Source of the DNA: Schmidtea nova
Taxonomy: Eukaryota
Assembly: GCA_044892505.1 (NCBI GenBank)
Contig: CM097882.1
Coordinates: 295,244,001 to 295,308,000 of the forward strand
Direction: 5' to 3'
DNA: 64,000 bases
Shown: positions 31,551 through 58,152 of the stretch, piece after piece
Layout: the number at the start of each line of letters is the position of its first letter
How positions within the stretch are numbered: position 1 is the first letter of the stretch
Notes under the pieces: model-generated
The model's input: only the letters and a program-made list of their open reading frames with translations
Databases searched by the model: none
Told to the model about the DNA's origin: nothing
Made by a program: the position numbers and the translations under genes

Positions 31551-31568
31551 TGGGGGCTCAGCCGGGAT
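31551..31568 (+). promoter_or_regulatory. Primer-binding site, tRNA-Pro type
   Basis: TGGGGGCTCAGCCGGGAT versus the canonical Pro PBS TGGGGGCTCGTCCGGGAT (16/18), 6 nt after the 5' LTR. Confidence 0.85.
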
Positions 31569-34051: not shown

Positions 34052-34867
34052 TTGAGAAAAGGAGCAAAGAGTGTCGTAGTAAAGCCAACGGAAAAGAAAG
34101 TCGGTAGCAACAGTAATAAAAAAGACAAAACTAGTACTACAACAAAATCAACAAAAAAGCAGAAAGCCGGCAAAGATAACCCACAAGGGAGTAAATCGAG
34201 GAAAATAATAAGAGATAAATCGATTACCGAAAACGATAAATTGTCAATAGTAAGCAACAGCTCAAGTAACAAAGAAAACCAAGCCGAACCCAAGGAGAAC
34301 CAACCAAGTGAAATAGAAAGCGACGAAACTAACAACTATAATATCGAAGAAATAGAACACGAGATAGAACAAGAAGGAGAAATCGACGAAACTAACAACG
34401 ACAATATTGAAGAAGTAGAAAACGAGGTAGAACAAGAGATAGAAATCAACGCGAGTGATAACGAAAGTATAATATCAGATAACGAAGGAATAAGAGAAAC
34501 AGAAAGCGATTCAAGCTCGAGTAAAACGGAAGACGAACATAACAACGAACTAGAAACAAGAGGAAACGAAAGTAAAATAACTCAAGACAGCGGAATTGAA
34601 ATGGGTGAACCAAGAGAAGAAATAAAGGATAAATTTTCAGGAGAACCGTTTAACGGAGATGCAAGTAAATTAGAAACCTTTTTAAAAGAATTTGGCATAT
34701 TCGTGGAAGTATGCAAATGGAAAGCTGAAACAACAGTAAGCAGAATTCAGTTATATTTGAAAGATAGTGCATTGGACCTATATTTGGAAGCGAAAAATGG
34801 TACCAATCCACCTACAAGCTGGACAGCGATAAAGGATTTTTTTCCAACAAACATTTGGAATAAATAA
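34052..34867 (+). CDS. gag: Gag N-terminal part (basic/acidic low-complexity region plus start of capsid), frameshifted into the next ORF
   Basis: EPFNGDASKLETFL..YLKDSALDLY..SWTAIKDFF. Removing one T from the T7 run at 34837-34843 gives DFFQQTFGINKVLSEAFIEFSMRKQ..NES...YA..L..LA, a continuous retrotransposon gag domain. First in-frame ATG is 34601. Confidence 0.85.
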   Translation: MRKGAKSVVVKPTEKKVGSNSNKKDKTSTTTKSTKKQKAGKDNPQGSKSRKIIRDKSITENDKLSIVSNSSSNKENQAEPKENQPSEIESDETNNYNIEEIEHEIEQEGEIDETNNDNIEEVENEVEQEIEINASDNESIISDNEGIRETESDSSSSKTEDEHNNELETRGNESKITQDSGIEMGEPREEIKDKFSGEPFNGDASKLETFLKEFGIFVEVCKWKAETTVSRIQLYLKDSALDLYLEAKNGTNPPTSWTAIKDFFPTNIWNK

Positions 34868-34868
34868 A

Positions 34869-40800: not shown

Positions 40801-43800
40801 ACGCATCGCTAGCAGCAACAACACAGTTGAAACCTGGAACCTGTACAAATGAGTTAGAAATCGATTACAAAGGAAAAGTACGATACGTTCAACCAGTGAC
40901 GAGAATCATCAATCCACCAGGGTTTGAACCAAATCCATTCAACTGTAGTAATGCGTATGGACCGCTTTATCAGAAACCAGATGGTAAATGGGTTATGTTC
41001 CCAGGAAGATCCGAAGTGATAGCACCAAGAGAATTCGAGCTAATGCAGTTGTCAAAGGATAGGCAATTCAGCGACGTGGATGTCTCAAACAACGGAATAT
41101 ATAGTCCAAAGGATTTAGAAGCAGCAAGGCAGAATATATTATTTCCAGCGAGAAGAGAAGCATTACTGTCAAATATCGTAACGATAACGGGAGGAACGAA
41201 TTATCGAGAAGGACCGAATTATGAACTGTTGTTGTCACCAGCACATTTCAAGAAAGCCACAGAAAATATGATGAAAGCAATGTGGGGAAGATTTTTGATA
41301 TTCGGACAAATGATGGCTGGAATACTGGGGGTTATATTAATCATCCAAATCGTCAGAGTAATAATAACACAAATGTTAGCATGTTTTGACATCTACAAGA
41401 GAGAAAAGAAAGTGAATTGGAAAATGGTAGTAGGATTTTTACCATTCCTTGCGAAAACGATGGTGTTACACGGTCACTCAAAAGATATCCACCGAATAAA
41501 AAGACTCCTGAAGATATTAGCAAAAATGAAGGGAACAGATGAAGAAGTAGGACGCAAATTTAAAAAGATAATGAACGACGAACAAGCAAGACAACAGCTC
41601 AAGAGAGAAAGAAAAGGTTTATGGGAGAGGATGAAAGGATATAAAACCCAAAATGATTCGAGTGACGACGATGATGACGATGACGACTATAAGGGAGGAC
41701 AAGTGTATAAGAACCAAGCACCACAATACATCGAAAAGAATCCAGCCGACGCATGGAAATGTTACGCGCCTCCACCAACAATGTATCAAGAACCACTACA
41801 AGGAGGAAAAAATAGCACGATGCAAATGATGCCAATGACAAATGTATACCCCATGATACCAGAAGATTATAAAATGAGAAGATGTAGAAGCGTAGATCCA
41901 CAAGGAGATACACACACGATCGCAGTAATGTCATCAAACACAGGTTCAGTGTTAACCACGACAATAGAGATTAACGGAAGAGAAATCGAAGCAATGATCG
42001 ACACGGGAGCAAACATTTCCGCCATCGACATCAAATGGATACCACAAGAGCAAAGACGGGAAATAGAAAGGACAAACGTCCATGTAATTGCATGTAGCAA
42101 AGAAGTTGTAGAAGTAGCAGGAAGATGGTGGGTAAAAATACGCCACTTAAACACGGAAATCGATACATACGTAGCAGTTATACCAGCGTTAAGCGTACCT
42201 TGCATCATCGGAACAGATTTGATGCCAGCATTATTTAAAGAAATTGTAATCGATCTCGGAACAATGAGACTAAAAGATCGCACAGGACAAATATGCGCAA
42301 TAGAAGCTAAAGTGACAAGTTCAAAGCAAATGATAATACCCGCAAGAAAGGAGAAAATATGTTACGTAAAAATAGATCCGACAATCCAAGGGGATATGAT
42401 TTTCGAACCAAGTAAGAGATTCGAGAAAAGAAAAGCGTTGCCAATGGCAAGAGGACTAGTCAACATAAATGACGATGGAGAAATCCCAATAAACGTAGTA
42501 AACTTCGATGAAGAGGACAAAATAATATACGAAAACGAAAGATTAGGTAAATTAACCCCAATGATGGATATCGAACTGCCCATAGAAGGAGCAGAGAAAG
42601 ATAAAGAACCAACCTGGAATATAGATAGTGAATTATTAAATGAGGATCAAAGGAAGCAGTTAGAAAAACTCCTGATAGAGTATAAGGATATATTTGCAGC
42701 ATCCGATTTGGATCTAGGAACATGTGATGTCACACTACATACAATACCATTAACAGATGAAACACCAATTGCATTAAGGCCGTACAAATTAGCGGAAGCA
42801 CAGAAGGCAGTAGCAGAAGCAGAAGTGAAGAAAATGTTGGATGCAGAAGTAATCGAACCAAGTTGTTCACCCTGGCAATTTCCAGTGGTAATGGTGAAGA
42901 AGAAAGACGGAACACAGAGATTCTGTATAGATTACCGAAGATTGAATACAGTGACAAAACGAGATACTTACCCATTACCAGACATCAACGAGATGCTACT
43001 AACATTACAAGGAGCAGCATATTTTACGTCGTTAGATCTGAAAAGCGGATATTGGCAAATAAAAATGAAGGAAGAAGATAAAGAGAAAACTGCCTTTACC
43101 ATCGGTAGAGACCTATATCAATTTCGAAAGATGCCATTTGGATTAACGAACGCACCAGCATCATTTCAGAGATGCATGAATTTCGTCACCCATGGAATAA
43201 AGCAGTGCATGGTCTACATCGACGATTTATTAATTTATTCTAGTACATTCGAACAACACATACAAGACATTCGAGATGTATTCGTTAGACTTAGACAATG
43301 GAAGTTAAAACTCAAGCCATCCAAGTGTGACTGGGCAAAAGAAAAGGTTACATTTTTAGGACATATAGTGTCAGCAAAAGGAAAAGAACCGGATCCTAGA
43401 AACATCGACAAGGTAAAAGAATGTCCAGTACCAAAAACAATAACCCAAATACAAGAATTTCTCGGATTATGTGGATATTATAGGAAGTTTATAAAAGATT
43501 ACGCCGGAATCGCAAAGCCTATACAGGAACTGGTAAAGAAAGATGTATCATTCATATGGGGAGATGGACAACAAACAGCCTTTGAAACGTTGAGAGATAA
43601 ATTGATAACCGCACCCATATTGGTACACCCAGACTTTAAGAAGCCATTCCTACTTGCAACAGATGCAAGCGGATATGCAGCAGGAGCAGTATTAGGACAA
43701 TACGATGACGAAGGAAAAGAACGTGTAATCGGATATTATAGCCGGACATTCAAAAAGCATGAGAAAAATTATTCAGTGACAGAACGGGAAGCATTAGCGA

Positions 43801-44189
43801 TTATACTAGCAATAAAACATTTTAAATATTTATTATTGGGTCACATCATCTGCATAACAACAGATCACCAACCGCTTGTATGGTTAGGACAGCACAAGGA
43901 AACATCTAGTAGACTAATGCGATGGGCAATGCAGTTACAGGAGTACTCACCGGACATAAAATTTAAATCAGGACGAGCAAATGCGAATGCAGACTGTATG
44001 TCAAGACTGACATTTCCGGAATTAACCGATCCTGATGTACAACGAATTTGTGTATTAATAGCAGAAGATTTAGATTTTAGCGAGCTTAAGAAAGATCAAC
44101 AAGAAGACAAAGAATTAGGACAAATCATAGAGTTCCTAACATCTCGAAACATGGAGGTATTCAAAGAGAATAAGGAATTAAATAAATAA
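34869..44189 (+). CDS. Polyprotein: capsid C-half, 3 zinc knuckles, Ubl x4, Bcl-2-like, Env-like glycoprotein, protease, RT, RNase H
   Basis: 3,106-aa open frame; domain motifs are listed as separate features. Confidence 0.95.
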   Translation: MLSEAFIEFSMRKQKMNESNAVYASELKKLAKSVFKDGGPINEELMAAIFIGGLRRPDIRAQVGCQGCKTIDQALETANRFELHMIGSEGRIYLAMDTAQTEPEVNLNNHIPNSQQLNRPPPQRRNEGNKVQNFESQNNYNPQRQTKQCKTCGKLGHWQQECYQNLNCGKCGVKGHSESRCSTIICFNCGRPGHYSRNCGQKSNQRGNWQSNGNRPNYGNQANTVNRPDYGNQQVNNNNNQNKTTPKEIHLMQEVQRLTELINNTTRGNPQTNQQQISMMRKIESENERLNRESQARHAQEWARIQREDEQKQQERERQPLRINMLRATNQTDTREKETTLEMNSIDPNPADNESRKEIVQKDEEVEKEAEKGEETEINQEERRKIWKKGMMVIMPNDHMFRFQYNAKEKVEILFNKVNQMIPGVTKLPREAFLQIGDAPSVKLKLTDTWENVGVTETKRNVMRIKEIEPEEIPPPIRHETRIRRIFEGKMIRRRLKEIDELGKKMGKVEVIEDKSEPTPEIDKNEQEPTENIQGETNQTAHINMLRNTTREFSDEEEDSDISSLAGDILNESEDENKEREVIKTSEPTQIKVDEIQKLLDNSLEVIYNEEFMDKKQYRKFMKALLQMNYKEWLQDREVDMLNRYVGKLIEEPLLNYTISIIINTSTPRIWIKTPFTDDIYRWVEDRLGSSYKNKFIYSQNRLVKKKTHLVETGIWPGEITLLSICDEKEEENLQEVAREANACFERRIKPRLEYEKERVLRKNLNSLIEQIIPQVKKHRKELMRSEYEKLKRCIECIRDTSHTRWSQISHDKLIAKMGKTMFRQGKITDLKISVELPNEDTKEIEVVADCTIRELINVINETLVQREPEDEWEDDIIIQYNEHVLWDHDERRLYKIGIWDNHQTIHVSRMGDTPRETAKDEKRERERRKEVVRKLQQIVEIYRNWRIGPEWENVLEELNLNRRIRTPVEKQWNEKGKCWEPKEGEYEEEYKRGIEDDCEPEMGRVCMVTRKATPIDLDGPETAAMWLEREKQKTEEFVEILKTNAHGKRKLIKGLADFFVVNGEDITCLRKVAKAIAEYKRVNEWCPEQLDHVIRKWRNQEFSQEIPQKVHLRIIYPNKDKEELWVGIAEKIRDIKKKLRYEPPFHLQHQGRSLDNSLEIGITPAQLDLMNTLTVEAIAGQPLKRKEENHKPHGSISTPSPMKSALTPGTSSRRSETTPRGNRERTPPQPYDVDEIFTDSDDMIEELTELTKEKDDNIFERIQELPTTIQVTNTGETEVEQEIIVEEVNDLTEDETRGAYAENVQLTQEMERWLEERANEPRDVTEETGRATRFVETGTGMDKRPRGRPKTDPATVVIRNKDEKRQDQWELCLKKLNKIAEMKEKETTPICQGEEWISKTIMELLAIIDPELRKYWRITEISEKAKSLHNAIAPILPEFIKEKTKSNHLDWQGTTMLIKKLTEGAETDNKYVIAIAYTIYNLLTLSRGRPKPTALERHIKNTAKIIAREIEPYVINKGGWETFIKTNQKKTQAKNMKKKFEKILEELGKEQAGTGNAKSSMNLSAIIMMMLIWMISTDSATAFEVFDCDQMKLGEKYSLRGTEQCKDATPVELQKIKKEQWYHVYQEAELIKTMVNECKVQKTRFAFYCGRGHYSAIVMPGTEREPIVLQGEDCEALFKHGEVTTRDKIKIRGKPGMMMQQTYYVAGRITGGEGYCQGETYPIFGVPATNLVVMDTYIVELKSYEAFFEPTTGEMKTLSMCKIDRSMCQTGMSTLVYKPKVNECQLQLLQGAKFDEIQGKTFQEEDDDDKARAKHLKEALENKRQLKPDHREKRIEMRATPTVLITTNQDVGMRFIKGKATLKCSTTVYETNYPGIYVSKQEVPNAKPKIDTMDIKLHLYVNNKMDFLFHRGQASLQKVYYDLINNDCILNREILKTKLAVAITNPDSAMPLLPLREGHFGRVVGEAMYVYICEKTHASLAATTQLKPGTCTNELEIDYKGKVRYVQPVTRIINPPGFEPNPFNCSNAYGPLYQKPDGKWVMFPGRSEVIAPREFELMQLSKDRQFSDVDVSNNGIYSPKDLEAARQNILFPARREALLSNIVTITGGTNYREGPNYELLLSPAHFKKATENMMKAMWGRFLIFGQMMAGILGVILIIQIVRVIITQMLACFDIYKREKKVNWKMVVGFLPFLAKTMVLHGHSKDIHRIKRLLKILAKMKGTDEEVGRKFKKIMNDEQARQQLKRERKGLWERMKGYKTQNDSSDDDDDDDDYKGGQVYKNQAPQYIEKNPADAWKCYAPPPTMYQEPLQGGKNSTMQMMPMTNVYPMIPEDYKMRRCRSVDPQGDTHTIAVMSSNTGSVLTTTIEINGREIEAMIDTGANISAIDIKWIPQEQRREIERTNVHVIACSKEVVEVAGRWWVKIRHLNTEIDTYVAVIPALSVPCIIGTDLMPALFKEIVIDLGTMRLKDRTGQICAIEAKVTSSKQMIIPARKEKICYVKIDPTIQGDMIFEPSKRFEKRKALPMARGLVNINDDGEIPINVVNFDEEDKIIYENERLGKLTPMMDIELPIEGAEKDKEPTWNIDSELLNEDQRKQLEKLLIEYKDIFAASDLDLGTCDVTLHTIPLTDETPIALRPYKLAEAQKAVAEAEVKKMLDAEVIEPSCSPWQFPVVMVKKKDGTQRFCIDYRRLNTVTKRDTYPLPDINEMLLTLQGAAYFTSLDLKSGYWQIKMKEEDKEKTAFTIGRDLYQFRKMPFGLTNAPASFQRCMNFVTHGIKQCMVYIDDLLIYSSTFEQHIQDIRDVFVRLRQWKLKLKPSKCDWAKEKVTFLGHIVSAKGKEPDPRNIDKVKECPVPKTITQIQEFLGLCGYYRKFIKDYAGIAKPIQELVKKDVSFIWGDGQQTAFETLRDKLITAPILVHPDFKKPFLLATDASGYAAGAVLGQYDDEGKERVIGYYSRTFKKHEKNYSVTEREALAIILAIKHFKYLLLGHIICITTDHQPLVWLGQHKETSSRLMRWAMQLQEYSPDIKFKSGRANANADCMSRLTFPELTDPDVQRICVLIAEDLDFSELKKDQQEDKELGQIIEFLTSRNMEVFKENKELNK
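35313..35465 (+). other. Nucleocapsid: three CX2CX4HX4C zinc knuckles
   Basis: CKTCGKLGHWQQEC, CGKCGVKGHSESRC, CFNCGRPGHYSRNC. Confidence 0.97.
36036..38399 (+). other. Region with four divergent ubiquitin-like (beta-grasp) domains (~36036-36266, 36837-37046, 37359-37595, 38199-38399)
   Basis: By-eye alignment to ubiquitin, best for LKISVELPNEDTKEIEVVADCTIRELINVI..IIIQYNEHVLWD..RRLYKIGIWDNHQTIHV. Confidence 0.6.
39057..39446 (+). other. Bcl-2-like domain
   Basis: BH2-like EPYVINKGGWETF and BH1-like KLTEGAETDNKYVIAIAY in an all-helical ~130-aa segment. Confidence 0.75.
39552..41468 (+). other. Env-like glycoprotein: signal peptide, Cys-rich ectodomain and TM; chuvirus-G / gB-like class III fusogen type
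   Basis: MNLSAIIMMMLIWMISTDSATA|FEVFDC..YSL..EQC..VYQ..CKV..FYCG; YVNNKMDF..LQKVYYDL..DCIL.R..L...LA..NP..A..L..GHFGRVVGEAMYVYIC; CTNEL..Y.G..RYVQPVTRII..C; TM FLIFGQMMAGILGVILIIQIV (41292-41387). Confidence 0.85.
41964..42270 (+). other. Aspartic protease (retropepsin)
   Basis: IEINGREIEAMIDTGANISAI (DTG at 42000) and CIIGTDLM. Confidence 0.95.
42720..44010 (+). other. pol: Reverse transcriptase plus RNase H (Ty3/Gypsy type)
   Basis: SPWQFPVVMVKKKDGTQRFCIDYRRLN, LDLKSGYWQI, MPFGLTNAPASFQR, YIDD (43215); TDASGYAAGAVL, YSVTEREALA, TDHQPL, NANADCMSR. Confidence 0.98.
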
Positions 44190-44215
44190 TTAAATAAGGA
44201 ATAAATAAAGGATGG

Positions 44216-47200
44216 TTGTTAATACAAGACGGAGAAAAGAGATTGATGTGTTTACCGGAAAACAGAAGGAAAGAGATAATGATCCAGTACCATGATGGGA
44301 AATTAGGAGGCCATATGTCCGAGAAGAAGACAATAAATCGTATGAGACAAAAATATTATTGGCGAACAATGGAAGAAGATATAAAAGAATGGATTAAAAA
44401 TTGTCTAACTTGCGCAACCAGAAAGGATAGTGGGAAGAAATGGAAGAACCCGCTACAACCAATGCCGATACCAGCAGAACCAATGACAACTATAGCAATG
44501 GACGTAATAGGACCATTACCGGAAAGTCTAAACGGAAATATTTGTATATTAGTGATAACAGATTATCTGACAAAATTCCCGGAAGCATTTGCCATGCAAG
44601 ACCAAAAAGCAAAAACTGTAGCAAAAATTTTAGTGGAAGAAATATGTTGCAGATACGGAACCCCAAAACAAATACTCACAGACCAAGGAACTAATTTTAT
44701 GAGCGAGCTATTGAACGAGGTAACAAACTATTTCAGAATAGCAAAATTGAGAACTTCACCATATCACCCGCAAACGAATGGACAAACGGAGCGATTCAAT
44801 GGTACATTGATTAGAATGTTATCAAATTACGTCAGCAGACATCAAACTGATTGGGACGAATACATAAAATTATGTTTAATGGCATACCGAATGTCGATAC
44901 ATGCAGCAACAAAACTAAGCCCATTTCAACTTATGTATGGAAGAGAATGCAACATGCCCATAGATTTAGAGTATCAGCCACCATTATCGCAATATATGGA
45001 AGACGACGACTACATAACCAAATTCAAAGAAAGAATGCAGGAAATATGGAAAACGGCAGAACTCAACATTAAATTTTATCAGGAAAGTTATAAGGACTTA
45101 CACGATCAGAAGAAAAATGTTAAAGCGAACGATCTAAAACCAGGAGATTGGGTGATAATAGAAACTCCCGAAATAATACCAGGAACAGTTAAGAAACTCC
45201 AAAGACCTGGAAGAGGACCTTATGAAATTATATACAAAAAGGACAATAATGTCAAAGTTAAGCTAATAAATCGACCCTTAATACGACCCATATATGTAAA
45301 CACCTGCAGATGTAAAAAGGTGCCTAAAACGATAACTACAACACCAGAAAATCGAATAATAACTAGATCACAAACAGCCAGGATAAATATGCTCAGAGCT
45401 AATGTAACTGAAGACGACAAAGCAGAAATAAGGCAAAAAGAAATCAGAAACAAAGAGATCATATTGAAGGCGAGAGAAATAATGGGAAGATGGCATGTTA
45501 GAGACGAAGCAGGCATATCAAGGGATATTAGACATATGATTAGCCGTTACGCACAAGGATTACCAACCGAACCAATTATTTCTGAATTATTGGAAAAAAT
45601 CCCTGAAATACTCTTATTGAAAGATGTAGGAGGACAACCAGCCTTACATAATGCGATAGAGTGTAAAAACATTGAAAGAGCAAAAGAATTCCTAAAAATC
45701 GCAAAAGAAACAAACCAAAACTTGGACGTAGGGAATCGGGAACAAGAAACTCCATTAATGACAGCCGCAATCCACCAAGCAGATAAAGAAATGATAGACC
45801 TATTGATAAAAGCCCATTTCAGTTGGACAGAACGAGATAGAGAGGACAAAACAGTGCTAAATCACGTAATATGGAGTTCTCACCAACCAATGCTGAAATA
45901 CATAATAGCTAACTCCACTTGGGAGATAGACGAACTAGTTAAAGGAGACATTATCAAAGAGGCAATCAAAATTGGTAAATGCAACACGATCCGTAAGTTA
46001 GTCAAATGGAAACGACCAGAAGATGATACATGGGTCTTAGACATAAACGAAGTATACAGCGAAGGACAAAACGCGTTGTTAAGATATCTTCTGAAATTTA
46101 CTTGTGATCAGAAGACATTACTAACCTTATTAGACAGAGGAAACATAAACATCACAAAGAATGAAGAAGAATACAAATTCGATAAAGAGAAGGAAGCCTT
46201 ATTCAACAAGATTAGGAAATGGTGTGCGAAACCACTTGACAAACTAATAACATACAAAGACATAAACAATTTTAACGAGAAATACCAGACAATAGTAAGT
46301 GAGTACGAGGAATTAGTAAAAATCTTAAACCATCCCGAAAAATGCAAACAGGTTTTGGAGAAAAAAGAAAGAGAAAGTAACAAGAAACTCACACCACTCT
46401 TTAAAGCAGAAGCACCATACCAAGCTAGACTAGATGCGATACAAGAAAAAGCAAAAGAATTGTTACCAGAATTCGAGAATAGTAAACATGCACTGGAAAT
46501 ACTCGGTGCATTAGTTGAAAAAGTACACGCATACGCAAAAGGAACTTACAACGGAAACGACATAGTAATAATAAAAAAGGAGATGCCAGTAACATTTTTA
46601 CTACCAAAGGACGGAATAATGCCCATACATAGAGCTCTACGAAATGGCAAAGATAGAAAAGTAATGGAAATTGCAAGAGTAATGCAAAATTGCGGAAGCA
46701 ATATGAATATGATAGACGAGAAAGGAGATACACTTATGGTATTTGCAGCAAGGGCCAAAACGAAAACAAAGGTATTAGAGGAACTATACAAAGCAGGTGC
46801 AGGACTTACAGGAAAGACAGATAAAGATAATTCGATATTGGATGTAGCATTATTAACACACAATTGGGAAATGGTCAATTTCATTAAAACCGTCCCAAAT
46901 CAGGAAGAAATAGATCACCTAACTGATACGGTCAAGAAACCCAGTGTACTAGCAATGATGAACAACGTCGAACTAACAGAATCAATACTTACGTGGATAA
47001 ATCCTAATACTAACGAACCAGCATTCAGGATTAATAAATTTACAGAACATAACCAAAACTGGTGTATAAGAAGTGCCTTAATAACGTATAAATGGCCAGA
47101 GATATTGAAGATGTTTATGGAAAGAAAGGATCTAAGAATCACAAACAGCCCGAAAGAAGAAAAATACACAGGCAAATGGAAAGAATTGATGAAGACATAC

Positions 47201-48805
47201 GTCAACAATTGGATCAAGGCCAAAAAGGAAATCTTAGAATATAAATCCGCTAACAAAGCAATACCGGAGCAAGTAGAAACACAAGAATTTGAGGCAAGTA
47301 ATCTAACGACATTGGCATATGCAAAATTGATAGAAGAAATCAATGTCGAGGACGACATTTTCGACGAGCCAGGGGGAGATGACAATACAGATAGTGACGA
47401 CGGTAACAACTCAGAAAATCCAAGCGATCACGAACCACCCGATAAAGAGGAAAACGAGAGAAAAGACAAGAAACGAGACAAGGAAGGAAAGAAAGGTGAA
47501 GACGAAAAACAAAGAGATGAAGAGAGAGAACAAGGAACAAACGACCAAGGAGATAAAAATGACACCCAAAGAACAGGTTATAAATCAACCATAAAACCAT
47601 TCTTCAAACCAGAATTACTATTACTAACAATGATTATAACGTTAATTAATCCAAGTCAGGGAATGACATGTGAAGAAAGGGCAATAATACAAATAAAAAA
47701 CGCAAAAGGAATCGAACGAGTATGTTGGTCGAAAAAGGACAAAATCACGGAACAAAATAGCCCGATGGATTGCAGAATCTCAAAACACGAGCAAGAGATC
47801 ATAGAGATCAATGACTTAGATCTAGATACCTGGTACAAAATATGCACCGTTAGAAAACAAAAACATCCAAGATCACACAACACAATCGCATGTGCAAAAT
47901 ACCAAACACCTAAAGCAGCCATGACAATACAACAGTCACCCAAAGGAGATTACATCATCGGAAAATGTGGAAGAACAGAGACACAGAGAACAGAAAATAA
48001 AAAACCCCAGGCAATAGATAAGCAAACAACACCAACCCTACGAATTACAATAGAAAGGCCCGAAACAAGAATTGCCACAAACGAAACCGAAAGAGTGTCT
48101 TACCAAATGGAAGTATTATGCTTAGCACTCATACTAATAATAATAAAACGATTAGAGGAAGGAATAGAAATTGAAACTATGACAATAACAGAAGTGGAAG
48201 ATACACAGAACACTAACATAAAATGTTGGGCGAGGAATAACGAGGAAATCGGCGTAAATGAAATAAGGAAAAGTCGAAAACCCACAACAAACAAAGTAAT
48301 TAAAGTATCCGAAGTAAGAGCAGACAAGACGTACAAACTATGCCTATTAGAAAAAGAGACAAACAAGAAAGGTACCACAAAATGTAAAACATTCCAACCT
48401 GGAGAAGTAATAAAGTTCAGAAGGAGAACGAGGAAGAGAAATAAACAAATCAAACAGAAAATAAACATAACATTAGAAATAAAAGAGATAGAACCAAATG
48501 TGAAAGGAGTATGCTGGAGGAAGTACGAAAAAGAAACAAATGAAAGAAAGACACCACAATGTCGAACAAGCACAGGAGCAACGACGATACAAATAAAAGG
48601 TTTAGAAAGTAAACAAACTTATGAAATATGTCTCGTAAAGAAAAATGATCAGATAACGATAAACGACCTAGAATGCGGAATATACACCACTTCATCCGGA
48701 ACAAGAACTAAAACGATAACACGAAAAAATAAAAGAAGACAACGAAACAAAGGGAAACCGAAGTACACCACTACCTTTAAAAAAAAAACAATAAACAACC
48801 GATAA
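44216..48805 (+). CDS. Polyprotein continuation: integrase, ankyrin repeats, acidic linker, internal signal, FN3-like repeats
   Basis: HDGKLGGH..CLTC zinc-binding domain; MDVIGP, TDQGTNF, NGQTERFN (DDE); GPY; ankyrin clusters 45629-45910 and 46610-46891; signal-like LLLLTMIITLINPSQG (47615-47662). Confidence 0.93.
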   Translation: MLIQDGEKRLMCLPENRRKEIMIQYHDGKLGGHMSEKKTINRMRQKYYWRTMEEDIKEWIKNCLTCATRKDSGKKWKNPLQPMPIPAEPMTTIAMDVIGPLPESLNGNICILVITDYLTKFPEAFAMQDQKAKTVAKILVEEICCRYGTPKQILTDQGTNFMSELLNEVTNYFRIAKLRTSPYHPQTNGQTERFNGTLIRMLSNYVSRHQTDWDEYIKLCLMAYRMSIHAATKLSPFQLMYGRECNMPIDLEYQPPLSQYMEDDDYITKFKERMQEIWKTAELNIKFYQESYKDLHDQKKNVKANDLKPGDWVIIETPEIIPGTVKKLQRPGRGPYEIIYKKDNNVKVKLINRPLIRPIYVNTCRCKKVPKTITTTPENRIITRSQTARINMLRANVTEDDKAEIRQKEIRNKEIILKAREIMGRWHVRDEAGISRDIRHMISRYAQGLPTEPIISELLEKIPEILLLKDVGGQPALHNAIECKNIERAKEFLKIAKETNQNLDVGNREQETPLMTAAIHQADKEMIDLLIKAHFSWTERDREDKTVLNHVIWSSHQPMLKYIIANSTWEIDELVKGDIIKEAIKIGKCNTIRKLVKWKRPEDDTWVLDINEVYSEGQNALLRYLLKFTCDQKTLLTLLDRGNINITKNEEEYKFDKEKEALFNKIRKWCAKPLDKLITYKDINNFNEKYQTIVSEYEELVKILNHPEKCKQVLEKKERESNKKLTPLFKAEAPYQARLDAIQEKAKELLPEFENSKHALEILGALVEKVHAYAKGTYNGNDIVIIKKEMPVTFLLPKDGIMPIHRALRNGKDRKVMEIARVMQNCGSNMNMIDEKGDTLMVFAARAKTKTKVLEELYKAGAGLTGKTDKDNSILDVALLTHNWEMVNFIKTVPNQEEIDHLTDTVKKPSVLAMMNNVELTESILTWINPNTNEPAFRINKFTEHNQNWCIRSALITYKWPEILKMFMERKDLRITNSPKEEKYTGKWKELMKTYVNNWIKAKKEILEYKSANKAIPEQVETQEFEASNLTTLAYAKLIEEINVEDDIFDEPGGDDNTDSDDGNNSENPSDHEPPDKEENERKDKKRDKEGKKGEDEKQRDEEREQGTNDQGDKNDTQRTGYKSTIKPFFKPELLLLTMIITLINPSQGMTCEERAIIQIKNAKGIERVCWSKKDKITEQNSPMDCRISKHEQEIIEINDLDLDTWYKICTVRKQKHPRSHNTIACAKYQTPKAAMTIQQSPKGDYIIGKCGRTETQRTENKKPQAIDKQTTPTLRITIERPETRIATNETERVSYQMEVLCLALILIIIKRLEEGIEIETMTITEVEDTQNTNIKCWARNNEEIGVNEIRKSRKPTTNKVIKVSEVRADKTYKLCLLEKETNKKGTTKCKTFQPGEVIKFRRRTRKRNKQIKQKINITLEIKEIEPNVKGVCWRKYEKETNERKTPQCRTSTGATTIQIKGLESKQTYEICLVKKNDQITINDLECGIYTTSSGTRTKTITRKNKRRQRNKGKPKYTTTFKKKTINNR

Positions 48806-51069
48806 GCCAAGAAGTTACGACAAAACCCGAGAAAAAGACATCAGCAACTCTAACATTATGGAAAATAGAGAATAAAACATTAGAAATATGTTGGATAATA
48901 GTTCAGAAACATATAAGAAGACAATCAAGAGAGTGCAGAAAAACAAATAAAGAAATCAAGATCGAAAAACTACAATTTAATAGCGAGTATGAAGTATGTA
49001 CAATAGAAAAAACGGACGCACTAGGAAACCAACAAGAAAGATGCGAAACCTACTATACACCAGCGAACGCAACATCAAAAGGAATAACAAGGAAACTCGA
49101 ATTCAGGGAACTAAGCCAAACGAATGAACAAATGGACACAGAAAAAACAATAACCGACCCTCAAGCAAAATGGACACCCGAAGAAGTTATCAAGGAAGTC
49201 AAAAGAAAGCAAGAGGAACGGGAACAATTAATGAGAAAACTAAAGGGACAATACGGAATAATGTTCAACCAAAGCGAATCTATGCAAACAGACGAGAATA
49301 AAGAAATTAAAGAACTAATTGGCTTAGGAATACTAACAGCAACCATACCAGTAATAATCGCGTTATCAGCTATATGGCTACGCAAGATAAGCCCAAGAAA
49401 ATCAACAACCCAATGGCTAAATATAGATAATACAAGCCATGGAGTAGAAATACTAGAAGAAAAAGCACGAGAAGAACCAAATAAGAAAGAAGCGAAAAGC
49501 GGAAAACTAGGAATAAACAACAAAGACAAGGAAATAAAAGAGATTAAAGGCGAAGAGAAAAAATATGAAAGGCGAACCAGAAGCCTACCGCAGAGTTCAA
49601 AATGGTTGGGTCTAACAATAATATTGACATTAATCAATAGGGAAGAAGCAATAAACCCACAGACAGGGATAAAAGTAATAAATGTCCAGGAAGTCGAGAA
49701 AATATGTTGGTATAGAGAAGAGGAACCAATTGGAGAAAATAACCCACTAAAATGCATAATCAGAAAATCCGACCAGGATATCGTACGAATAGAAGAAATG
49801 GATGGAGGAACCATGCATCGGATATGCATAATAGAAAAGGAAAAGAAGTCGGGGCTACCTAAGACAGTCGTATGCCAGAAATATGAAACGCCTAGACTTG
49901 AATGGTATAGAGTAAAACCAACAAAGAAAGAAATCAAAAACACAATAGATCAACCAGCAACTCAGATAAAAAACATAACGGATAAACCAAGAGAAGGGGA
50001 GAGAAGCATAAATAACACGAGAAAAGGAGCATCACCCCAACAAGATGTCGTATGCATAGCGTTAATAATAGCAATGTCCAAACGTATCAACAAAGGAATA
50101 ACAATAGAACAAATGGCCATGACAATAAGGAGAAAAGGCCGGAGTAGCAACAAAATATGCTGGGGATGGTACAACGAACAAAAAGAATACCAAGTTCAGA
50201 CAAGCGACGAATCACGAACAAACAAGGAAACCGAAATACAAGAAATACAAATGGACGGAGAAGGAAGTATATGTATATGGGAGAAAGGAATCCAAGAAGA
50301 TCAACCCGGAATAGAAAAGTGCAAGACATTCCAAAAAGGAGAAATTCTGAAATTCGATGAAGAAGAATTAACCAAAACAGAAAGAACTCTGACATTAACA
50401 GGACTCGATCAGACAGTTAAAGGAATATGTTGGACAAAGCATAACCCAGAAGGGGAAGAAGACAATTTAACCCACTGTAGAGAAATAAAGAATAAAGAAA
50501 AAGTCGAATTAAAGAAAATGGAAGTAAATAGGACATACGCGATATGTACCTTCACCAGAAAAGGTTCAGAAAAACCAGAATGCGGATTATATCAGATCTC
50601 AGAGAAACTACAACAACAGATCGAACCAGGAAACGTGGAAAACCGAACAAAAGAAAATAACGTCAAAAAACTACTAAATCGCCATTGGTCTACACAAGAA
50701 GTAATGAACAAAGTTAAGAGTCAAGTACAGAAGGAGAAGAAGCCAGAGGCTCAAACCCAAAATGAGATTAAAGCGAATCAGAATAAAATCAAAGCAACAA
50801 ACCGTGGAAAAACAGTAATAGGATTAATCAGTATAGGAATATTAATAGCATATGGGATAATGACGACAAGCATGATAATATATTGGAGATACAGAAAGAG
50901 AAACAAAGCGACAGCCATACAATGGCCAGATATTAAAATTATGAAGCAAAGAATAGAAATACCAGAAGAGATACAGCAAGAATTCCAAAGAAGAACGAAA
51001 GGTAAAGAATTCTGGAAACAAATAGAAGATGAAGAAAGATACGAGGAAAAGACGATAATGATGGTATAG
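48781..51069 (+). CDS. Polyprotein tail: FN3-like repeats and TM segments; -1 frame relative to the previous ORF
   Basis: The frame is open from 48781, 117 codons before the track's ATG at 49132, and that part encodes another repeat (TLEICW..KLQFNSEYEVCT). The junction is an A10 run at 48779-48788. TMs at 49315-49380 and 50815-50886. Confidence 0.85.
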   Translation, partial: KKNNKQPISQEVTTKPEKKTSATLTLWKIENKTLEICWIIVQKHIRRQSRECRKTNKEIKIEKLQFNSEYEVCTIEKTDALGNQQERCETYYTPANATSKGITRKLEFRELSQTNEQMDTEKTITDPQAKWTPEEVIKEVKRKQEEREQLMRKLKGQYGIMFNQSESMQTDENKEIKELIGLGILTATIPVIIALSAIWLRKISPRKSTTQWLNIDNTSHGVEILEEKAREEPNKKEAKSGKLGINNKDKEIKEIKGEEKKYERRTRSLPQSSKWLGLTIILTLINREEAINPQTGIKVINVQEVEKICWYREEEPIGENNPLKCIIRKSDQDIVRIEEMDGGTMHRICIIEKEKKSGLPKTVVCQKYETPRLEWYRVKPTKKEIKNTIDQPATQIKNITDKPREGERSINNTRKGASPQQDVVCIALIIAMSKRINKGITIEQMAMTIRRKGRSSNKICWGWYNEQKEYQVQTSDESRTNKETEIQEIQMDGEGSICIWEKGIQEDQPGIEKCKTFQKGEILKFDEEELTKTERTLTLTGLDQTVKGICWTKHNPEGEEDNLTHCREIKNKEKVELKKMEVNRTYAICTFTRKGSEKPECGLYQISEKLQQQIEPGNVENRTKENNVKKLLNRHWSTQEVMNKVKSQVQKEKKPEAQTQNEIKANQNKIKATNRGKTVIGLISIGILIAYGIMTTSMIIYWRYRKRNKATAIQWPDIKIMKQRIEIPEEIQQEFQRRTKGKEFWKQIEDEERYEEKTIMMV

Positions 51070-51194: not shown

Positions 51195-51551
51195 ATGACC
51201 GAACAGGACGAAACAACTGAAATAACTATGGCTATGAGATGGAAAGCACAATGTGATTTATTAGTACGAACAGTCAACTCATTACAGAACCAATTAGCGG
51301 AAAGACAAATGTTATTATCAGAAAGTTATAACAACTGTTTCGAACAATTACACAGAATAGAGGAACAACAAAGAGCGATAACTGAACTCACCAGAGAAAA
51401 TCAAACGATAAGCAACACCAATCAAAGACAAGCAATAGAAATAAACCATTTAACACGAGGAGAAAGAGAAGGATCCGAAGAAGGATGGATGAGTTGGGTA
51501 ATAAATAGATTAAACAACGAAGCGGAACCAGATTCAACGAATGAGCCATAG
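51195..51551 (+). CDS. Accessory coiled-coil protein, 118 aa
   Basis: Intact ORF with heptad-like LQNQLAERQ..LTRENQ pattern and the element's A-rich codon usage. Confidence 0.75.
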   Translation: MTEQDETTEITMAMRWKAQCDLLVRTVNSLQNQLAERQMLLSESYNNCFEQLHRIEEQQRAITELTRENQTISNTNQRQAIEINHLTRGEREGSEEGWMSWVINRLNNEAEPDSTNEP

Positions 51552-51645
51552 ATAAATAAAGCGGAAAACTGTAAATATGTAAAAAATAAAAACAAGAAAA
51601 ATCCAAAAATAAATGACAAGTCGAATGTATATATTATTGTAGAAA

Positions 51646-53022
51646 ATGGACAGAGAAGAACGAATAATCGAAATTTTGAGACTAGAAAACAGAAAATGGA
51701 GCAAGAGGCTCACCTGCGGGAAATGTAGTAATTTACTACGAGAACCCAGACAAACGATATGTGGATGTAGAATATGTACAAAATGTATACAAGAATTAGA
51801 GGTAACAGGAATAACAACATGCCCAGAATGTAAAGAAGGAAGAATAGTGTTGAACGAAACTAGAACGGACAAAGCAACTCAAAGAGAAATTATGAGCACC
51901 ACAACGGAGTGCGTAAATACACCTTGTGTATGGCAAGGACAGATAAGCAATCTAGAGAACCATATGGAGAAATGCGAGGAAAAGAAAGCCGAATGCGAGA
52001 AATGCCAACAGACAATAACTCTAAAGAAGAGAGAACAACACAAGGAAGAATGTAAAGAAGAAGAAATCGCATGCGAGTATTGTGAAACTCGAGAAACGAG
52101 GAGAAAAATCGAAGAGGAACACTTAAATATAACAGAGGAGAAAGTATGCAGACAATATGTAAGTAAATGTCCAAACAATTGCGAAATAACAGAAGAAGTA
52201 AAATTACATGAACATTGGAAAGTATGTACCGAAAGACCAAGAGAATGTCCATATAACAAACAGGGATGCAAAGAAAAGCGGACGCGGCAATCAATGAAAC
52301 AACACCTAGAAGAAGCAGCACTAACGCATGTAGAAATGACAAACGAAACAACAAAAGAAACGGAACAGACACTCCAGAAATTAGAAAAAGAAGTAGAATC
52401 ACATAAGATAATGATAAGTTTACTACTAGAAACAAGAGAGCAGTTTGAACTAACTCGCGAAAGAATGGAAAAGAAAATAATAGCCATAGAAGAATTAGGA
52501 AAAGGAATGAAAATACAATATAATCAATTAATACGAGAAATTGACGAAAGAAGGGACTTACCAATCGCACCTTACCTATGGAAAGTAACAGATTTCAGAG
52601 ACAAACTAGCAGAAGCCAGAAATATGACGAAAACAGCAGTAATAAGCCCACCATTTTATTTATGGAAAAACGGGGTTAAAATAAGATTGAAAGTATACCC
52701 AAATGGAGACGGAAGAGGACAAGGAACACAAGTGTCAATATTCTTCTCACTATGTAAAGGAGAATACGATGACCTAATAGAATGGCCCTTGAAAGTAGGA
52801 GTCATTATCAGAATCAAAAGTATGGGAAAACCAGTAGAAAAGTTCTTTGAAACAGACAAACATTCGAGTACGAGCGAAAAACCAACAACAGAATGCGGAC
52901 TAGCAGCAGGAGAACCAATGTTTATAAGGAAGGAAAACCTATGGGAGCGACTATATGCAGACACGCTATACATAGAGATGGAGAGGCATGAGAAAACAGA
53001 CAGAAAAGGATGGTTGGCGTAA
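51646..53022 (+). CDS. Full-length TRAF-like protein (RING, TRAF zinc fingers, coiled coil, MATH), 458 aa
   Basis: RING CGKCSNLLREPRQTICGCRICTKC..CPEC; CVNTPCVWQG..HMEKC; MATH YLWKV..SPPFY..RLKVYPNGDG.G.GTQVSIFF.L.KGEYD.LIEWP. Confidence 0.95.
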   Translation: MDREERIIEILRLENRKWSKRLTCGKCSNLLREPRQTICGCRICTKCIQELEVTGITTCPECKEGRIVLNETRTDKATQREIMSTTTECVNTPCVWQGQISNLENHMEKCEEKKAECEKCQQTITLKKREQHKEECKEEEIACEYCETRETRRKIEEEHLNITEEKVCRQYVSKCPNNCEITEEVKLHEHWKVCTERPRECPYNKQGCKEKRTRQSMKQHLEEAALTHVEMTNETTKETEQTLQKLEKEVESHKIMISLLLETREQFELTRERMEKKIIAIEELGKGMKIQYNQLIREIDERRDLPIAPYLWKVTDFRDKLAEARNMTKTAVISPPFYLWKNGVKIRLKVYPNGDGRGQGTQVSIFFSLCKGEYDDLIEWPLKVGVIIRIKSMGKPVEKFFETDKHSSTSEKPTTECGLAAGEPMFIRKENLWERLYADTLYIEMERHEKTDRKGWLA

Positions 53023-53134: not shown

Positions 53135-54196
53135 ATGGGAAATATAGAAGTAACCTTACAAGAAGTAACAGTACATCAAGACGAAATGATCAGAAATCAC
53201 ATGGAGCGGATTGGGATATGGATTCATGCCTATTATCGAAAACAGGAGGAATTGGAAAGACAAACCCAAGCACTAAGAGAAGCCGAGAAAACGAATCAAA
53301 GAAGTCGAGAAAAAATAGAAGAAGTCTACAAACTGCTAAGGCAACAAAATGAATACTACAAAGAGATGATGAAAGAGCGACGAGAGGATAGAGATAGACA
53401 ACAGATAAAAACCGACCATAAGATTCAGTCAATCACAGAACAAGCAAGATATTGGAAGAAAGAGGCAAAAGACTCTTACAAGGAAGCAAGGGAGATAATA
53501 GAACGAACAGCGTACAGCGATGATTGGAAACTGTTTAAAGAGATCGATGAATTAAAAGAGGAATTAGGGCAAAAGATCAGTCAAGAAGCGTCAAATAAAG
53601 TATGGAGTAAGAAAAGACAACAATTTATCAGAGAACAAGCCAAGAAAATAAAAGAATTAACTTATCAAGTACAAAGAATGGGAGAAGATTTAGCCAATCA
53701 AGAACAATTAAAAGGTATGCTGACCGGAATGTGGAATCACAAGGAAGAAAACATGAAAAGAGACATAAATGGATATCAAGGAGTGATCACCCAGAAGAAA
53801 ATAGAATTAAAAAGAACTAAAGAAAGAATGGAAGAAACGAGGCAGAGTTATGAAGAGAACATAACAAATTTGACAAAAGAAAACGAAGAACTGAGAAAGA
53901 AGTTGGCAGAAAAACCAACACCAATAAAAGAAACAAGTATCACAGCAGCAGTGACCGAAATGATGGAGAAGGAAGAGAGAGAGAAAAAATTGGCAGAACT
54001 AGAAAAACAAATTGAAACCCTAACAGAACAGGCGAACTATCTGGAATACTTATTAGATGAAGAGATCCAGATATCCCACACATACCGAGAAGAAGTCGAA
54101 ATGTGGAGGAGCACGGTAATATGGATGCCACTCCCCATAAATCAGGTGGAACCTCAAGACGAAGGTTTTTACGAACCCAACGAAACCCTTGTATAA
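53135..54196 (+). CDS. Accessory long coiled-coil protein, 353 aa
   Basis: Intact E/K/R/Q-rich helical ORF with no catalytic motif visible. Confidence 0.8.
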   Translation: MGNIEVTLQEVTVHQDEMIRNHMERIGIWIHAYYRKQEELERQTQALREAEKTNQRSREKIEEVYKLLRQQNEYYKEMMKERREDRDRQQIKTDHKIQSITEQARYWKKEAKDSYKEAREIIERTAYSDDWKLFKEIDELKEELGQKISQEASNKVWSKKRQQFIREQAKKIKELTYQVQRMGEDLANQEQLKGMLTGMWNHKEENMKRDINGYQGVITQKKIELKRTKERMEETRQSYEENITNLTKENEELRKKLAEKPTPIKETSITAAVTEMMEKEEREKKLAELEKQIETLTEQANYLEYLLDEEIQISHTYREEVEMWRSTVIWMPLPINQVEPQDEGFYEPNETLV

Positions 54197-54271: not shown

Positions 54272-54841
54272 ATGAGAAAGCTCGCAATAGCAACACTCCT
54301 ATGGTTAACAACCATTACCCTACAGAGAGAAGATCTACAACTAACCGAAACCCAATTACGAGTTCTACCCGACAAAACCTATCAGAAAGTAGACAGCCTA
54401 ATCGAAGAAGTAATTAAAGAAATCAACGAATTCCGACAGAAATTCCCCCACAATCAAGATCGTCAAATCCAACAAATCTTCGATAATCAACAACTGAAAC
54501 TAGAAGAAACCCGAAAAATCCTGAAAGAAGGTAGAGAACCCATAAAAAGCCTATCCCAAGCTGAAATAGAATATCAAGAGAAATGGATCATAGCAATCAT
54601 CATAATCCTAGCAGTCAGCACAACTATCATCGCAATCACAATCCTAATTGCCTCATATAGAATAAAAATCCTAAAACAAAAGCAGAAAATCTACAACCAA
54701 ACCTCCAGACGAGATAACCGAGCTCAAAGACGAATAAGGAGCCATCTCAACCACATTCAAACCCACTACGAGCTACAAATGATCAACGAGAGGACCCGAA
54801 CTCAACCCCAAGCGAGCCAGACGATCGAACAAATTGTATAA
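54272..54841 (+). CDS. Accessory type I membrane protein (signal, short helical ectodomain, TM, basic tail)
   Basis: ATG 54272 MRKLAIATLLWLTTITL; TM WIIAIIIILAVSTTIIAITILIAS followed by YRIKILKQK. The track start 54239 is a GTG. Confidence 0.75.
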   Translation: MRKLAIATLLWLTTITLQREDLQLTETQLRVLPDKTYQKVDSLIEEVIKEINEFRQKFPHNQDRQIQQIFDNQQLKLEETRKILKEGREPIKSLSQAEIEYQEKWIIAIIIILAVSTTIIAITILIASYRIKILKQKQKIYNQTSRRDNRAQRRIRSHLNHIQTHYELQMINERTRTQPQASQTIEQIV

Positions 54842-55044: not shown

Positions 55045-56423
55045 TGTTGGGCCCGCCAAATCACCTAAAAACACAATAAAACGAACAAAAGCATGAAACA
55101 ATAAAGAAATAATAAAAATAAAAATAGCAAGAAAAACAAATTAAAAATAACAATAAAACGACAAATAATAATTGATAAATTTTCAGTAAAAGGAAATTTT
55201 GAAATAAACCGGTAAACAACCGCAAAGGGGGGCCTGAAATAAGAAAAAATAGAATTAAATAAAATAATAGTACAAATAATTAATTAATTACTTGGAAAAT
55301 CAGGACCACCCAGCGAGAAACCGGAAAAGGAAACAAAATAATGTTTAGGTTAGATTAAAATAATAAAAATACTTTGATGGACGGCCTGATCCTGATTGGT
55401 CAATCCAACCAGACGGATCAGTATAAATACCGATCCAAAAATCACAGACTAGAGACGTTTTACATTTCACTTACAATCAAGACTAAACTTTGATTTAAGT
55501 AACATTTCATTTAACGAAGCGAGAATTTTTTGAAAAAACAGAATTCAAGTACGGAACGTAATTTTGATTGTTATTTTTTATGTACCCATGATTTTTATTT
55601 AATTAAAAGTTTATATGTAAAAGTTATTTTATTTTTTCATGGATTATTTTTAATGCATATAGCTATACTTCCTATGCTGCTCACGCGGCGAGGGAGTCCG
55701 AGTCGTCGTCGTGGGGCCTCAGGGTCTCACATGGCGGTTCAACCTTTTTATTATTTAATTTAGATGTGAAGTTTTATCTAGAAAATTTGATTGAATTTTT
55801 AGTCTAATACAGACCATTTGCAAATTATTTAATTTTGGGTTGCACAACGGACGAAGGTCGAGGGCCAAATATGTAGATTGCGGAGGGCGGATGGATAAGG
55901 AGGGACACACCATGGTAGGGCATGCTCAGTCTTTAAATTTTTGGTAAATTGAATCGAAAGGGAACCTCCCGCATGGAAAACAGTGAGCAACAACTAAAAT
56001 AAATTTGAATAATTTCGTTGGAATGAGAAAATCCAACGTAGTCCAAAGTCCGAATTCATTCGGAATCAGCATTTCGCCTACAAAATTTTAATATCGATAA
56101 ATTCCGATCGCGATGGAATGCGTCGGAAAATCCAAATTAAATTAGTTACTAAAAATAGGCCGATCGTCGTATATGACGCGGTTTCCCAAGTTATTCTCCG
56201 ATCGCTGTATATAGCGCGGAAATCTTGAGTAAATTTGATAATTCCTGAATGCTGTATATAGCACAGGACTAATTATGAACTCTTTATTCCGACCGTGGTA
56301 GATCACGGCGGAGAGAAATAAAATTAATCTTATTTTTTAACTGTTGTGATTATATGCAACATAATTAAATTATCAACGAATTTCCCCCTTAACTCATATT
56401 TATATCCAATAAATGTAATATAG

Positions 56424-56903
56424 ATGTCGACAGCTGAACTTACAAATCAATTAACGCAACTACGGAATATGGAGCAAGGGAATCTGCGGAATGAAAATCT
56501 CTCGCAGCTCAAGGAACTACCAGCATCGATATTGCGAACCCTCAACTGCCAAATGTATCAGTGGCGACAGGGGTTTGGCCGAAAATGCCCGTTCTCGATA
56601 TGGACAGGAGGGCACGACCAAATACTCTATCGAGGAGGACCGAACTGGCCGATTTCTCAAAGGCCGTACTCAAACAAATTTGGCCGACTTGTCGTACTGA
56701 TCAAGGACACCGATGGACAGACAAGCCGTGTAATTTATTGGGGGCATATCCCTCGTCGAGAGCTGTGCCAATTGGGTCTGCACGAATTCCTGCCGCGAAA
56801 ACCCTTCGGCAAGGAATGCCAGAAAGGACAACCTGCGTTTTCCTGGGCTCGTCTCCGACAGAAACCGATTAACAGCGAATTACATAGCCTGTTTCGGAGA
56901 TAA
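56424..56903 (+). CDS. LTR ORF A, 3' LTR copy
   Basis: Translation identical to 29816..30295. Confidence 0.8.
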   Translation: MSTAELTNQLTQLRNMEQGNLRNENLSQLKELPASILRTLNCQMYQWRQGFGRKCPFSIWTGGHDQILYRGGPNWPISQRPYSNKFGRLVVLIKDTDGQTSRVIYWGHIPRRELCQLGLHEFLPRKPFGKECQKGQPAFSWARLRQKPINSELHSLFRR

Positions 56904-57087
56904 GAACTGATTGTCAAATCTTTCAAATTGTGATTAAATATTAATATTCAGCAGTGTTTTGTTATGTTGTTTTGAGTTTTGGTATTGTGTTTTTTAATAA
57001 TTCATATTCGTAACCAAATAACCCTATGATCCGTTTCATTTTTCACATCATTTAATCATAGAGTAAATATCCTAAATACATTATAGA

Positions 57088-57684
57088 ATGAACCCAGATT
57101 TGATGCAGAAAGAATTGGAAAAGATGTGGCGGATTCGGAGAGCCCAGGACAAGGAATTGGGTCTCCTCAAGGCACAATTGATCAAAGCAGAGGCACAGAT
57201 TGCATATTTGCGCAAAAGCTGGTTTGCTCCGGCCCGAATGAAGGAGCAAATCAGTAAAACCGAGCGCGCCCAACAGACTGCAGCCGATTACCAAATGGAA
57301 TGGGAGGCTACAAAGATAGAACTCCGAAAATGCCTCCATTCCGTAACTGCCTCATACATCGAGAAGGAACTCAGAGAGCAAATCCGTCCGATTACGTACC
57401 AAGCTTGGACGGCAGAAAAGAAGACAGTAAACTCCATTGGAACGGATGTCCCCGATTTAATTGAAAGTCGGAATGAGACAGCTCCTCCAGCCAATTCAAC
57501 CACTTCATCGGCGACTGCGCACCAGAAACGCAAGCGCATTGGGCAGAAACGGCGGAGACAGAGAAAATTATTTGCCCAGCAATTACAAATCCAAGTCGAT
57601 GGTCTACATCAGATGACTGAGGAAGCATTATTGACGGAGATTTTTCCTCCGGCGGGAGTTTTTACCGAACTCATTAAAAATTAA
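57088..57684 (+). CDS. LTR ORF B, 3' LTR copy
   Basis: Translation identical to 30480..31076. Confidence 0.8.
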   Translation: MNPDLMQKELEKMWRIRRAQDKELGLLKAQLIKAEAQIAYLRKSWFAPARMKEQISKTERAQQTAADYQMEWEATKIELRKCLHSVTASYIEKELREQIRPITYQAWTAEKKTVNSIGTDVPDLIESRNETAPPANSTTSSATAHQKRKRIGQKRRRQRKLFAQQLQIQVDGLHQMTEEALLTEIFPPAGVFTELIKN

Positions 57685-58152
57685 ATAAATTGTTGCATTG
57701 GCTTAAGAATCTCATCGTTCATTTAAATTGATTTAATTAACTTTACCAATGATTAAATAAAGATAGAACAAAAGTATAAATTCAGTTTACAAAATATCGA
57801 ATAGAGATAATTAAATAATTAAGCGAGCATTCGTTGAAATACTTCTCGCAGACTGAGTAATGATAAAAATAAATTTTCTGAAAGATTAACACGGAATACC
57901 TAAGGGGATGATTAAAGCGTAAGTCCTTCTAACGGCAGCAATGGACCCGTAAACATAAATGGGGAGTAGTACTAGCGATAGTGCTCACCTGCCCATCATT
58001 GTTTAACCACCCTGCGCATCACCAACTTGATTATATAGGGAAATAATCAAGGGCGCTTGAGTGAAAAATTGCAATTTTATGCATGATCATGGATGAGGGA
58101 TCCCTAGTCATTGTTAGAGCATTTTTCATCTAACCCCTCCATGAACCCAGCA

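Follow-up and report, generated by a model that had tools for sequence, protein, structure and literature searches.

The TRAF gene and its carrier element

The window, by which we mean the whole 64-kb stretch of DNA analysed here, contains a Burro-type giant Gypsy LTR element of 29.7 kb with the domain order PR-RT-RH-IN, and a complete TRAF gene lies within it. The following features were recognised:

28433-28436 and 58153-58156: CATA target duplication, flanking both LTR ends
28437..31544, + strand: 5' LTR (TG..CA), containing ORFs 29816-30295 and 30480-31076
31551..31568, + strand: primer-binding-site-like stretch, recognised from the sequence
31877..32338, + strand: 153-aa ORF with a helical N-part and a C-terminal RING, no BIR (Pfam and inspection)
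34019..44189, + strand: polyprotein with gag (CCHC), env-like mononegavirus fusion domain, protease, RT and RNase H
44198..51069, + strand: integrase, ankyrin repeats, repeated beta-rich domains and transmembrane tail
51195..51551, + strand: 118-aa coiled-coil-like accessory ORF (orf118)
51552..51645, + strand: 94-nt spacer before the TRAF ORF, with four TGTA, three AATAAA and a predicted 3' splice acceptor ..TTGTAG ending at 51642
51646..53022, + strand: full-length TRAF ORF of 458 aa, ATG at 51646, TAA at 53022, no internal stop; RING C24-C62, five TRAF zinc fingers C89-H228, coiled coil about 231-302, MATH about 308-449
53135..54196, + strand: 353-aa coiled-coil accessory ORF, dN/dS 0.08
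54272..54841, + strand: 189-aa accessory ORF with N-terminal and internal hydrophobic stretches, a predicted membrane protein (by eye)
55045..58152, + strand: 3' LTR, identical to the 5' LTR

The two LTRs match at 100% over 3109 bp and the element ends in TG..CA (28437, 58152). The TRAF ORF stands between them as the second of four short ORFs 3' of the polyprotein, which bears out the proposal of an earlier note on this DNA that the gene is carried by a retroelement. Pfam places a Monjiviricetes_fusion domain (E 2.8e-71) in frame between the gag CCHC and the protease, and neither Pfam nor an Atlas search assigned the 353-aa coiled-coil ORF to a family. The primer-binding-site-like stretch is presumably of the tRNA-Pro type; no tRNA gene was found within the 64-kb window. 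By eye, we take the RING of the 153-aa ORF to be IAP-like. The polyprotein frame of the window copy is broken at about 34867, 44189 and 48805, and the two of these breaks that were checked are open in 17/19 and 32/35 other copies. Because of the three breaks, this copy of the element is probably not autonomous, but its TRAF is intact.

Several further traits of the element were observed. The LTR ORFs (159 and 198 aa; 29816-31076 and 56424-57684) have homologues in other genomic LTR fragments and belong to no Pfam family. Two tandem arrays with 29-nt and 32-nt units occupy 32751-33502, between the RING ORF and gag. An (R/H)INMLR-like motif recurs with variants in the polyprotein (34899-48805), possibly as protease cleavage sites (by eye), and repeated Cys-Trp-containing domains at 47700-51069 precede the transmembrane tail, their family-C homologue giving a weak fn3 match (E 0.005). 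Upstream of the 5' LTR, at 19650-20834 and 27558-28160, lie an inverted-repeat element with arms of about 390 bp (98%) and a transposase-like ORF fragment (by eye).

The TRAF ORF matches MATH_2 (E 2.9e-20), TRAF-mep_MATH (E 1.4e-18) and zf-TRAF (E 2.3e-7) above the Pfam cut-offs, whereas its RING is a weak match (zf-C3HC4_4, E 0.012) below its own cut-off. We nevertheless call the RING, since the ORF matches PDB sequences of TRAF6, TRAF5 and TRAF2 RING-zinc-finger constructs (E 8e-13 to 7e-9) and since all 28 Cys/His zinc ligands, 8 in the RING and 20 in the fingers, are present. The fourth RING ligand is Cys instead of the usual His, as in triclad TRAFs. The AlphaFold2 model has a mean pLDDT of 93.5 and a pTM of 0.51, so that the relative placing of the domains is not fixed; the coiled coil (TRAF-N) is predicted as a single helix (225-302, mostly pLDDT >90) preceding MATH. 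The best Foldseek matches of the model are domains of TRAF3, TRAF5, TRAF1 and TRAF2 (E 3.5e-17 to 4e-16). The protein thus has the features of TRAF-family membership, namely the C-terminal MATH/TRAF-C beta-sandwich, the coiled coil, and the N-terminal RING and zinc fingers, and Pfam, PDB matches, ligands and fold model agree with the intact full-length TRAF described before. The R/K-x-Y-x-x-G-D-G stretch of MATH is kept; judging from residue roles, we take the second half of this domain to carry part of the receptor-peptide groove.

The A-rich codon style, which was said to be shared with the element, is confirmed. The frequency of A at four-fold sites is 0.72 in the TRAF ORF, 0.60-0.61 in the gag-pol and integrase frames and 0.52-0.61 in the element's other frames, as against 0.30-0.39 in all eight host TRAF frames measured. 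The gene is also intronless, in that it lies in a single frame. However, this state is not evidence of capture, because host TRAFs outside elements likewise sit in single frames of 368-486 aa.

Burro (GYPSM1) elements are giant Gypsy LTR elements of dugesiid planarians (PMC6431247), and our assignment rests on a match to the available parts of that published description: a length of about 30 kb, long LTRs, a huge polyprotein, an in-frame env-like fusion domain, ankyrin repeats, a RING and MATH cargo. A MATH_TRAF_C cargo in Burro is already published, with MATH in an upstream accessory ORF of the D. tigrina element and within the polyprotein of Burro1, and a BIR domain is described for Burro1-4 (PMC6431247). 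Pfam found no BIR in any of the 12 element ORFs scanned, and we therefore speak of a Burro-type element without filing it as Burro1-4. For the same reason, a cIAP-TRAF pairing has no basis in the element family, and the link to cIAP ligases drawn in the earlier note is left without direct support. By eye, and on our understanding of where TRAF2 binds cIAP, that stretch is not recognisable in the element TRAF. Pfam also gave no match to a BCL2-like motif in the element ORFs. The element described here differs from Burro in that its cargo is a whole TRAF, in a separate ORF downstream of pol and in five lineages, whereas the published account, as far as its available text goes, names MATH only, without a selection test or an origin (PMC6431247). 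What appears to be new is the full-length, selected TRAF; the kind of element and its MATH cargo had been published (PMC6431247), and this is not a new kind of system. We found no published description of such a TRAF, though the original Burro and B-IAP papers with their supplements may show one.

Copies, selection and descent

Exact 25-mers were counted 251 times for family A and 110 times for family B (control 25-mers, 0), giving at least 361 copies of the element TRAF by this measure. The best 40 of 602 candidate places, the window's own copy included, are full-length and 97-98% identical, and 36 of them retain an intact TRAF frame. As these 40 had been chosen by likeness, we took a second sample of 20 at even steps among the first 100 listed of the 251: all 20 lie in element sequence, 13 have one full TRAF frame and 7 are broken or partial. 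All 30 top copies fetched with 10-kb flanks reach LTR sequence.

Five element lineages carry a whole TRAF in the same slot. These proteins are 43-77% identical to that of the window and each retains 28/28 zinc ligands. RT identity to the window (99, 97, 95 and 92%) ranks the lineages as TRAF identity does (77, 70, 52 and 43%), and the gene order orf118 - TRAF - coiled-coil ORF is maintained in lineages A1, A3, B and D. In a sixth family (C), MATH occurs alone, within the gag-pol polyprotein (2 copies examined). This suggests that the cargo evolved from one capture, which was kept whole in some lineages and reduced to MATH inside the polyprotein in another. At L169 and L096, a more distant TRAF-bearing element (34-38% identical to the window protein) and another cassette of short accessory ORFs suggest that there are more lineages than the five analysed.

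At every depth, dN/dS across copies is 0.13-0.18, in agreement with the proposed retention of the gene by selection. Pairwise dN/dS among the best 40 copies is 0.14, with 0.11-0.25 in each of the four domains and 0.116 in the RING. The even-step sample of 20 gives 0.128, with an uncorrected pN/pS of 0.20 (95% 0.17-0.24), and pN/pS is 0.176 in lineages A3 (9 copies) and D (8 copies). Variants found in at least two of the best 40 copies are synonymous in 59 cases and non-synonymous in 32, for a ratio of sites of about 1:4. Constraint on TRAF is far weaker than on RT (dN/dS 0.003). Between families A and B, the synonymous sites of TRAF are saturated (pS 0.74), as are those of RT (pS 0.86). By contrast, the env-like domain (window 40377-41399 compared with locus L097) is 99% identical between the two families and unsaturated at synonymous sites (pS 0.33); in view of this difference from RT, env was likely exchanged between families A and B.

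Host TRAFs of the genome are 24-31% identical to the window protein over the full length, and among those compared none exceeds about 31-34% identity to the element TRAF. One of them shares 70% identity with D. japonica TRAF2-like A, which points to a dugesiid planarian as the host. The element TRAF is therefore neither nearly identical to any host TRAF compared nor absent from other copies. It is extremely improbable that the element picked up a host TRAF recently and that the gene is now a functionless passenger: the 7 broken or partial copies among the 20 evenly picked ones and the 4 stops among singleton variants of the best 40 would fit such passive transduction, but broken copies are what decay after insertion is expected to leave, and the low identity to host genes, the element-type codon bias, the dN/dS values and the presence in five lineages all speak against it. 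The hundreds of copies, the distance from host TRAFs and the lasting constraint instead bear out the old capture that had been suggested.

The element TRAF shares its Cys-for-His RING and a finger-3 insert with all five triclad-type TRAFs that were compared; neither of the two aligned vertebrate TRAFs has these features. A first homologue search with the TRAF ORF had returned only six distant matches. In a MATH tree of 68 rows (LG+G), the element TRAFs group with the polyprotein-embedded MATH and two unnamed proteins (94.2/97), and in a mixture-model tree of 32 chosen rows the same group receives 94/93, the clade not being starred. Its sister is the host TRAF-2A/TRAF-4 group (95/99 under LG+G, 84/77 under the mixture model). 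A quick full-length tree also places the element TRAFs in a triclad group (SH-aLRT 91), with the sister left unresolved. The phylogeny with host TRAFs that had been called for thus puts the element genes near those of triclads; the element rows in these trees have an odd composition. The best genome matches of the nearest unnamed relative (P0141) are mostly element TRAFs (31-37%), one host TRAF scoring level, and a metagenome scan for its genomic context gave no match. Taken together, the trees, the Cys-for-His RING with the finger-3 insert and the parallel ranking of RT and TRAF make a single old capture from a triclad TRAF likely, the donor clade not being fixed.

Triclad TRAFs (D. japonica TRAF2-like A, Dendrocoelum TRAF-4, Smed-TRAF-2A/B) resemble the element TRAF in their five zinc fingers, Cys-for-His RING and finger-3 insert, in the single-frame coding of the genome's homologues and in their neighbouring clade in the MATH trees. 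The element TRAF differs from them in its identity of about 30%, its A-rich codons, its diverged groove-side MATH half and its hundreds of dispersed copies. Vertebrate TRAF2/3/5 share its domain order and fold; nevertheless, it is not the orthologue of any single one of them, and its RING is without the His ligand.

An expansion of TRAFs in planarians has been reported without an explanation (Swapna et al., PMC6109357; PMC8807557), and the available text of Ziman et al. has no passage containing 'transpos' or 'retro'. The earlier note supposed that a mobile TRAF could inflate host family counts. By hand count, the best 150 MATH matches of the genome comprise 73 host-type and 77 dispersed and element-type matches; flanks were checked for 8 of these 77, and the window's own TRAF family lies below the score range of this list (67.9 bits). 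The host has TRAF arrays of its own on C2 (405-455 Mb); outside Burro sequence, TRAFs of 368-486 aa also occur in a single frame. We read 10-kb flanks at 13 host single-frame or array loci and saw LTR or Gypsy fragments close to a few of them. The C2 region (L011-L017, L021-L040) is a large tandem host TRAF cluster with many last exons of 160-210 aa, some of its genes being single-frame. In the mixture-model MATH tree, the tandem host TRAFs form a separate clade (100/99), so that element copies do not explain the expansion. An AU test rejects a derivation of the tandem TRAFs from the element (p 0.0066, for a group chosen after tree inspection). Element copies can therefore inflate genome TRAF counts but reduce to a few families; the expansion in the host is genuine, and TRAF counts need splitting into element-borne and host genes.

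Possible roles of the element TRAF

The gene is a selected accessory TRAF of a Burro-type element, likely an old capture that is likely expressed from its own spliced RNA. On balance, we lean slightly towards a role as a retargeted adaptor, which would tilt host signalling towards survival. The predicted protein would trimerise, as inferred by analogy, and engage host TRAF signalling, biasing it so that a cell transcribing the element stays alive. The pro-survival effect is likewise inferred by analogy, from host TRAF knock-downs and the element-borne IAP: RNAi or knock-down of planarian TRAFs leads to more cell death (PMC7586133; PMC8807557), failure of piRNA control is accompanied by Burro1 expression (PMC8532177), and the IAP of Burro1 reportedly protects stem cells (PMC13465017). 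The B-IAP of Burro1 (Lee et al. 2026) is, like the element TRAF, a captured cell-death regulator in a Burro element; however, it belongs to the BIR+RING family and its function was reportedly shown (PMC13465017), whereas that of the TRAF is deduced. According to a recent report, an IAP carried by Burro supports regeneration (PMC13465017); the element TRAF would be a second candidate host-manipulating gene in Burro-type elements, testable by RNAi.

The retargeting is suggested by the pattern of conservation. For the second half of MATH, similarity is 0.43 between element lineages but 0.63 between host-type triclad TRAFs, whereas the RING, the fingers and the coiled coil are more alike among the element lineages, which argues for changed binding targets. 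The host receptor specificity is probably not kept. This would fit a decoy as well, which would join host TRAF trimers or partners and block the antiviral or dsRNA response to the RNA and particles of the element, without promoting survival directly. We regard such an immune decoy as unlikely, if worth serious attention. Apart from the diverged groove-side half beside better conserved RING, fingers and coiled coil, it agrees with the best MATH scores being against TRAF3 and TRAF5, with the viral fusion-protein domain in the element, and with the response of planarian TRAF3, TRAF6 and RIG-I to pathogen stimuli (PMC7958881). A pure decoy, however, would have no need for 28 zinc ligands and an intact RING at dN/dS 0.11-0.12. 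The two explanations overlap.

The conserved neighbourhood raises another, rather less probable explanation, in which the TRAF is a private adaptor or ubiquitin ligase for the element's own neighbouring membrane and coiled-coil proteins, in a receptor-adaptor module or in particle assembly and release. The gene order kept in the four lineages, the purifying selection on all neighbours of TRAF (dN/dS 0.08-0.31) and the resemblance of two of them to single-pass membrane proteins are in its favour. Against it, no conserved TRAF-binding motif was seen by eye in the tails in families A, B and C, and family C retains MATH alone, inside the polyprotein. When the 5' RING protein of the element was modelled with three coiled coil-MATH chains of the TRAF, the complex scored 0.03, which speaks neither for nor against an interaction.

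Spacers, predicted splice signals and expression

The ..TTGTAG that precedes the TRAF ATG in the window is found in all five lineages, and YAG occurs 0-3 nt before the ATG at 6/7 accessory ATGs as compared with 67/582 other ATGs (P 1.5e-5). The four spacers (75-128 nt) contain 15 TGTA against 2.1 in shuffles, none of 10,000 shuffles reaching 15, and the family B spacers contain 14 against 1.8. Given this motif conservation, splicing of the TRAF RNA at the predicted acceptor is likely. One genomic copy (L132) has a GT..AG join, with no mismatch, exactly into the predicted acceptor of orf118 (51191|51192). Against splicing, this is 1 of 19 scored junctions, and at TRAF starts replaced upstream sequence was found in 0/130 cases. 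Three of the four sequencing runs for this stretch look like DNA libraries and carry no information on splicing. Trans-spliced operons of another flatworm typically have spacers of about 100 nt (PMC8629364), and trans-splicing of the element's accessory RNAs is a guess.

A wider view would have Burro-type elements carry an operon-like cassette of host-derived survival and immunity genes. In it, the short TGTA-rich spacers (73-128 nt), each with a terminal splice acceptor just before the next ATG, would give a complete TRAF ligase-adaptor and each of its neighbours a spliced mRNA of its own, possibly with a trans-spliced leader; the TRAF would rewire stem-cell signalling, and its copies would form a real share of the TRAF expansion. 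As a whole, we consider this view doubtful.

Many A3 and D copies are without RT, RNase H and integrase: the protease is followed by ankyrin repeats and the TRAF is still intact (L154, L159, L161, L166, L168, L172 and L174-L177). The recurrent RT-integrase deletions were considered as spliced copies and rejected as such, since 18/19 scored junctions are without GT..AG and most lie in short repeats; 3 of the 19 are in tandem repeats or badly aligned, and the family D junctions are not resolved. The A3 deletion removes about 3.02 kb and is found repeatedly at a single site within short repeats.
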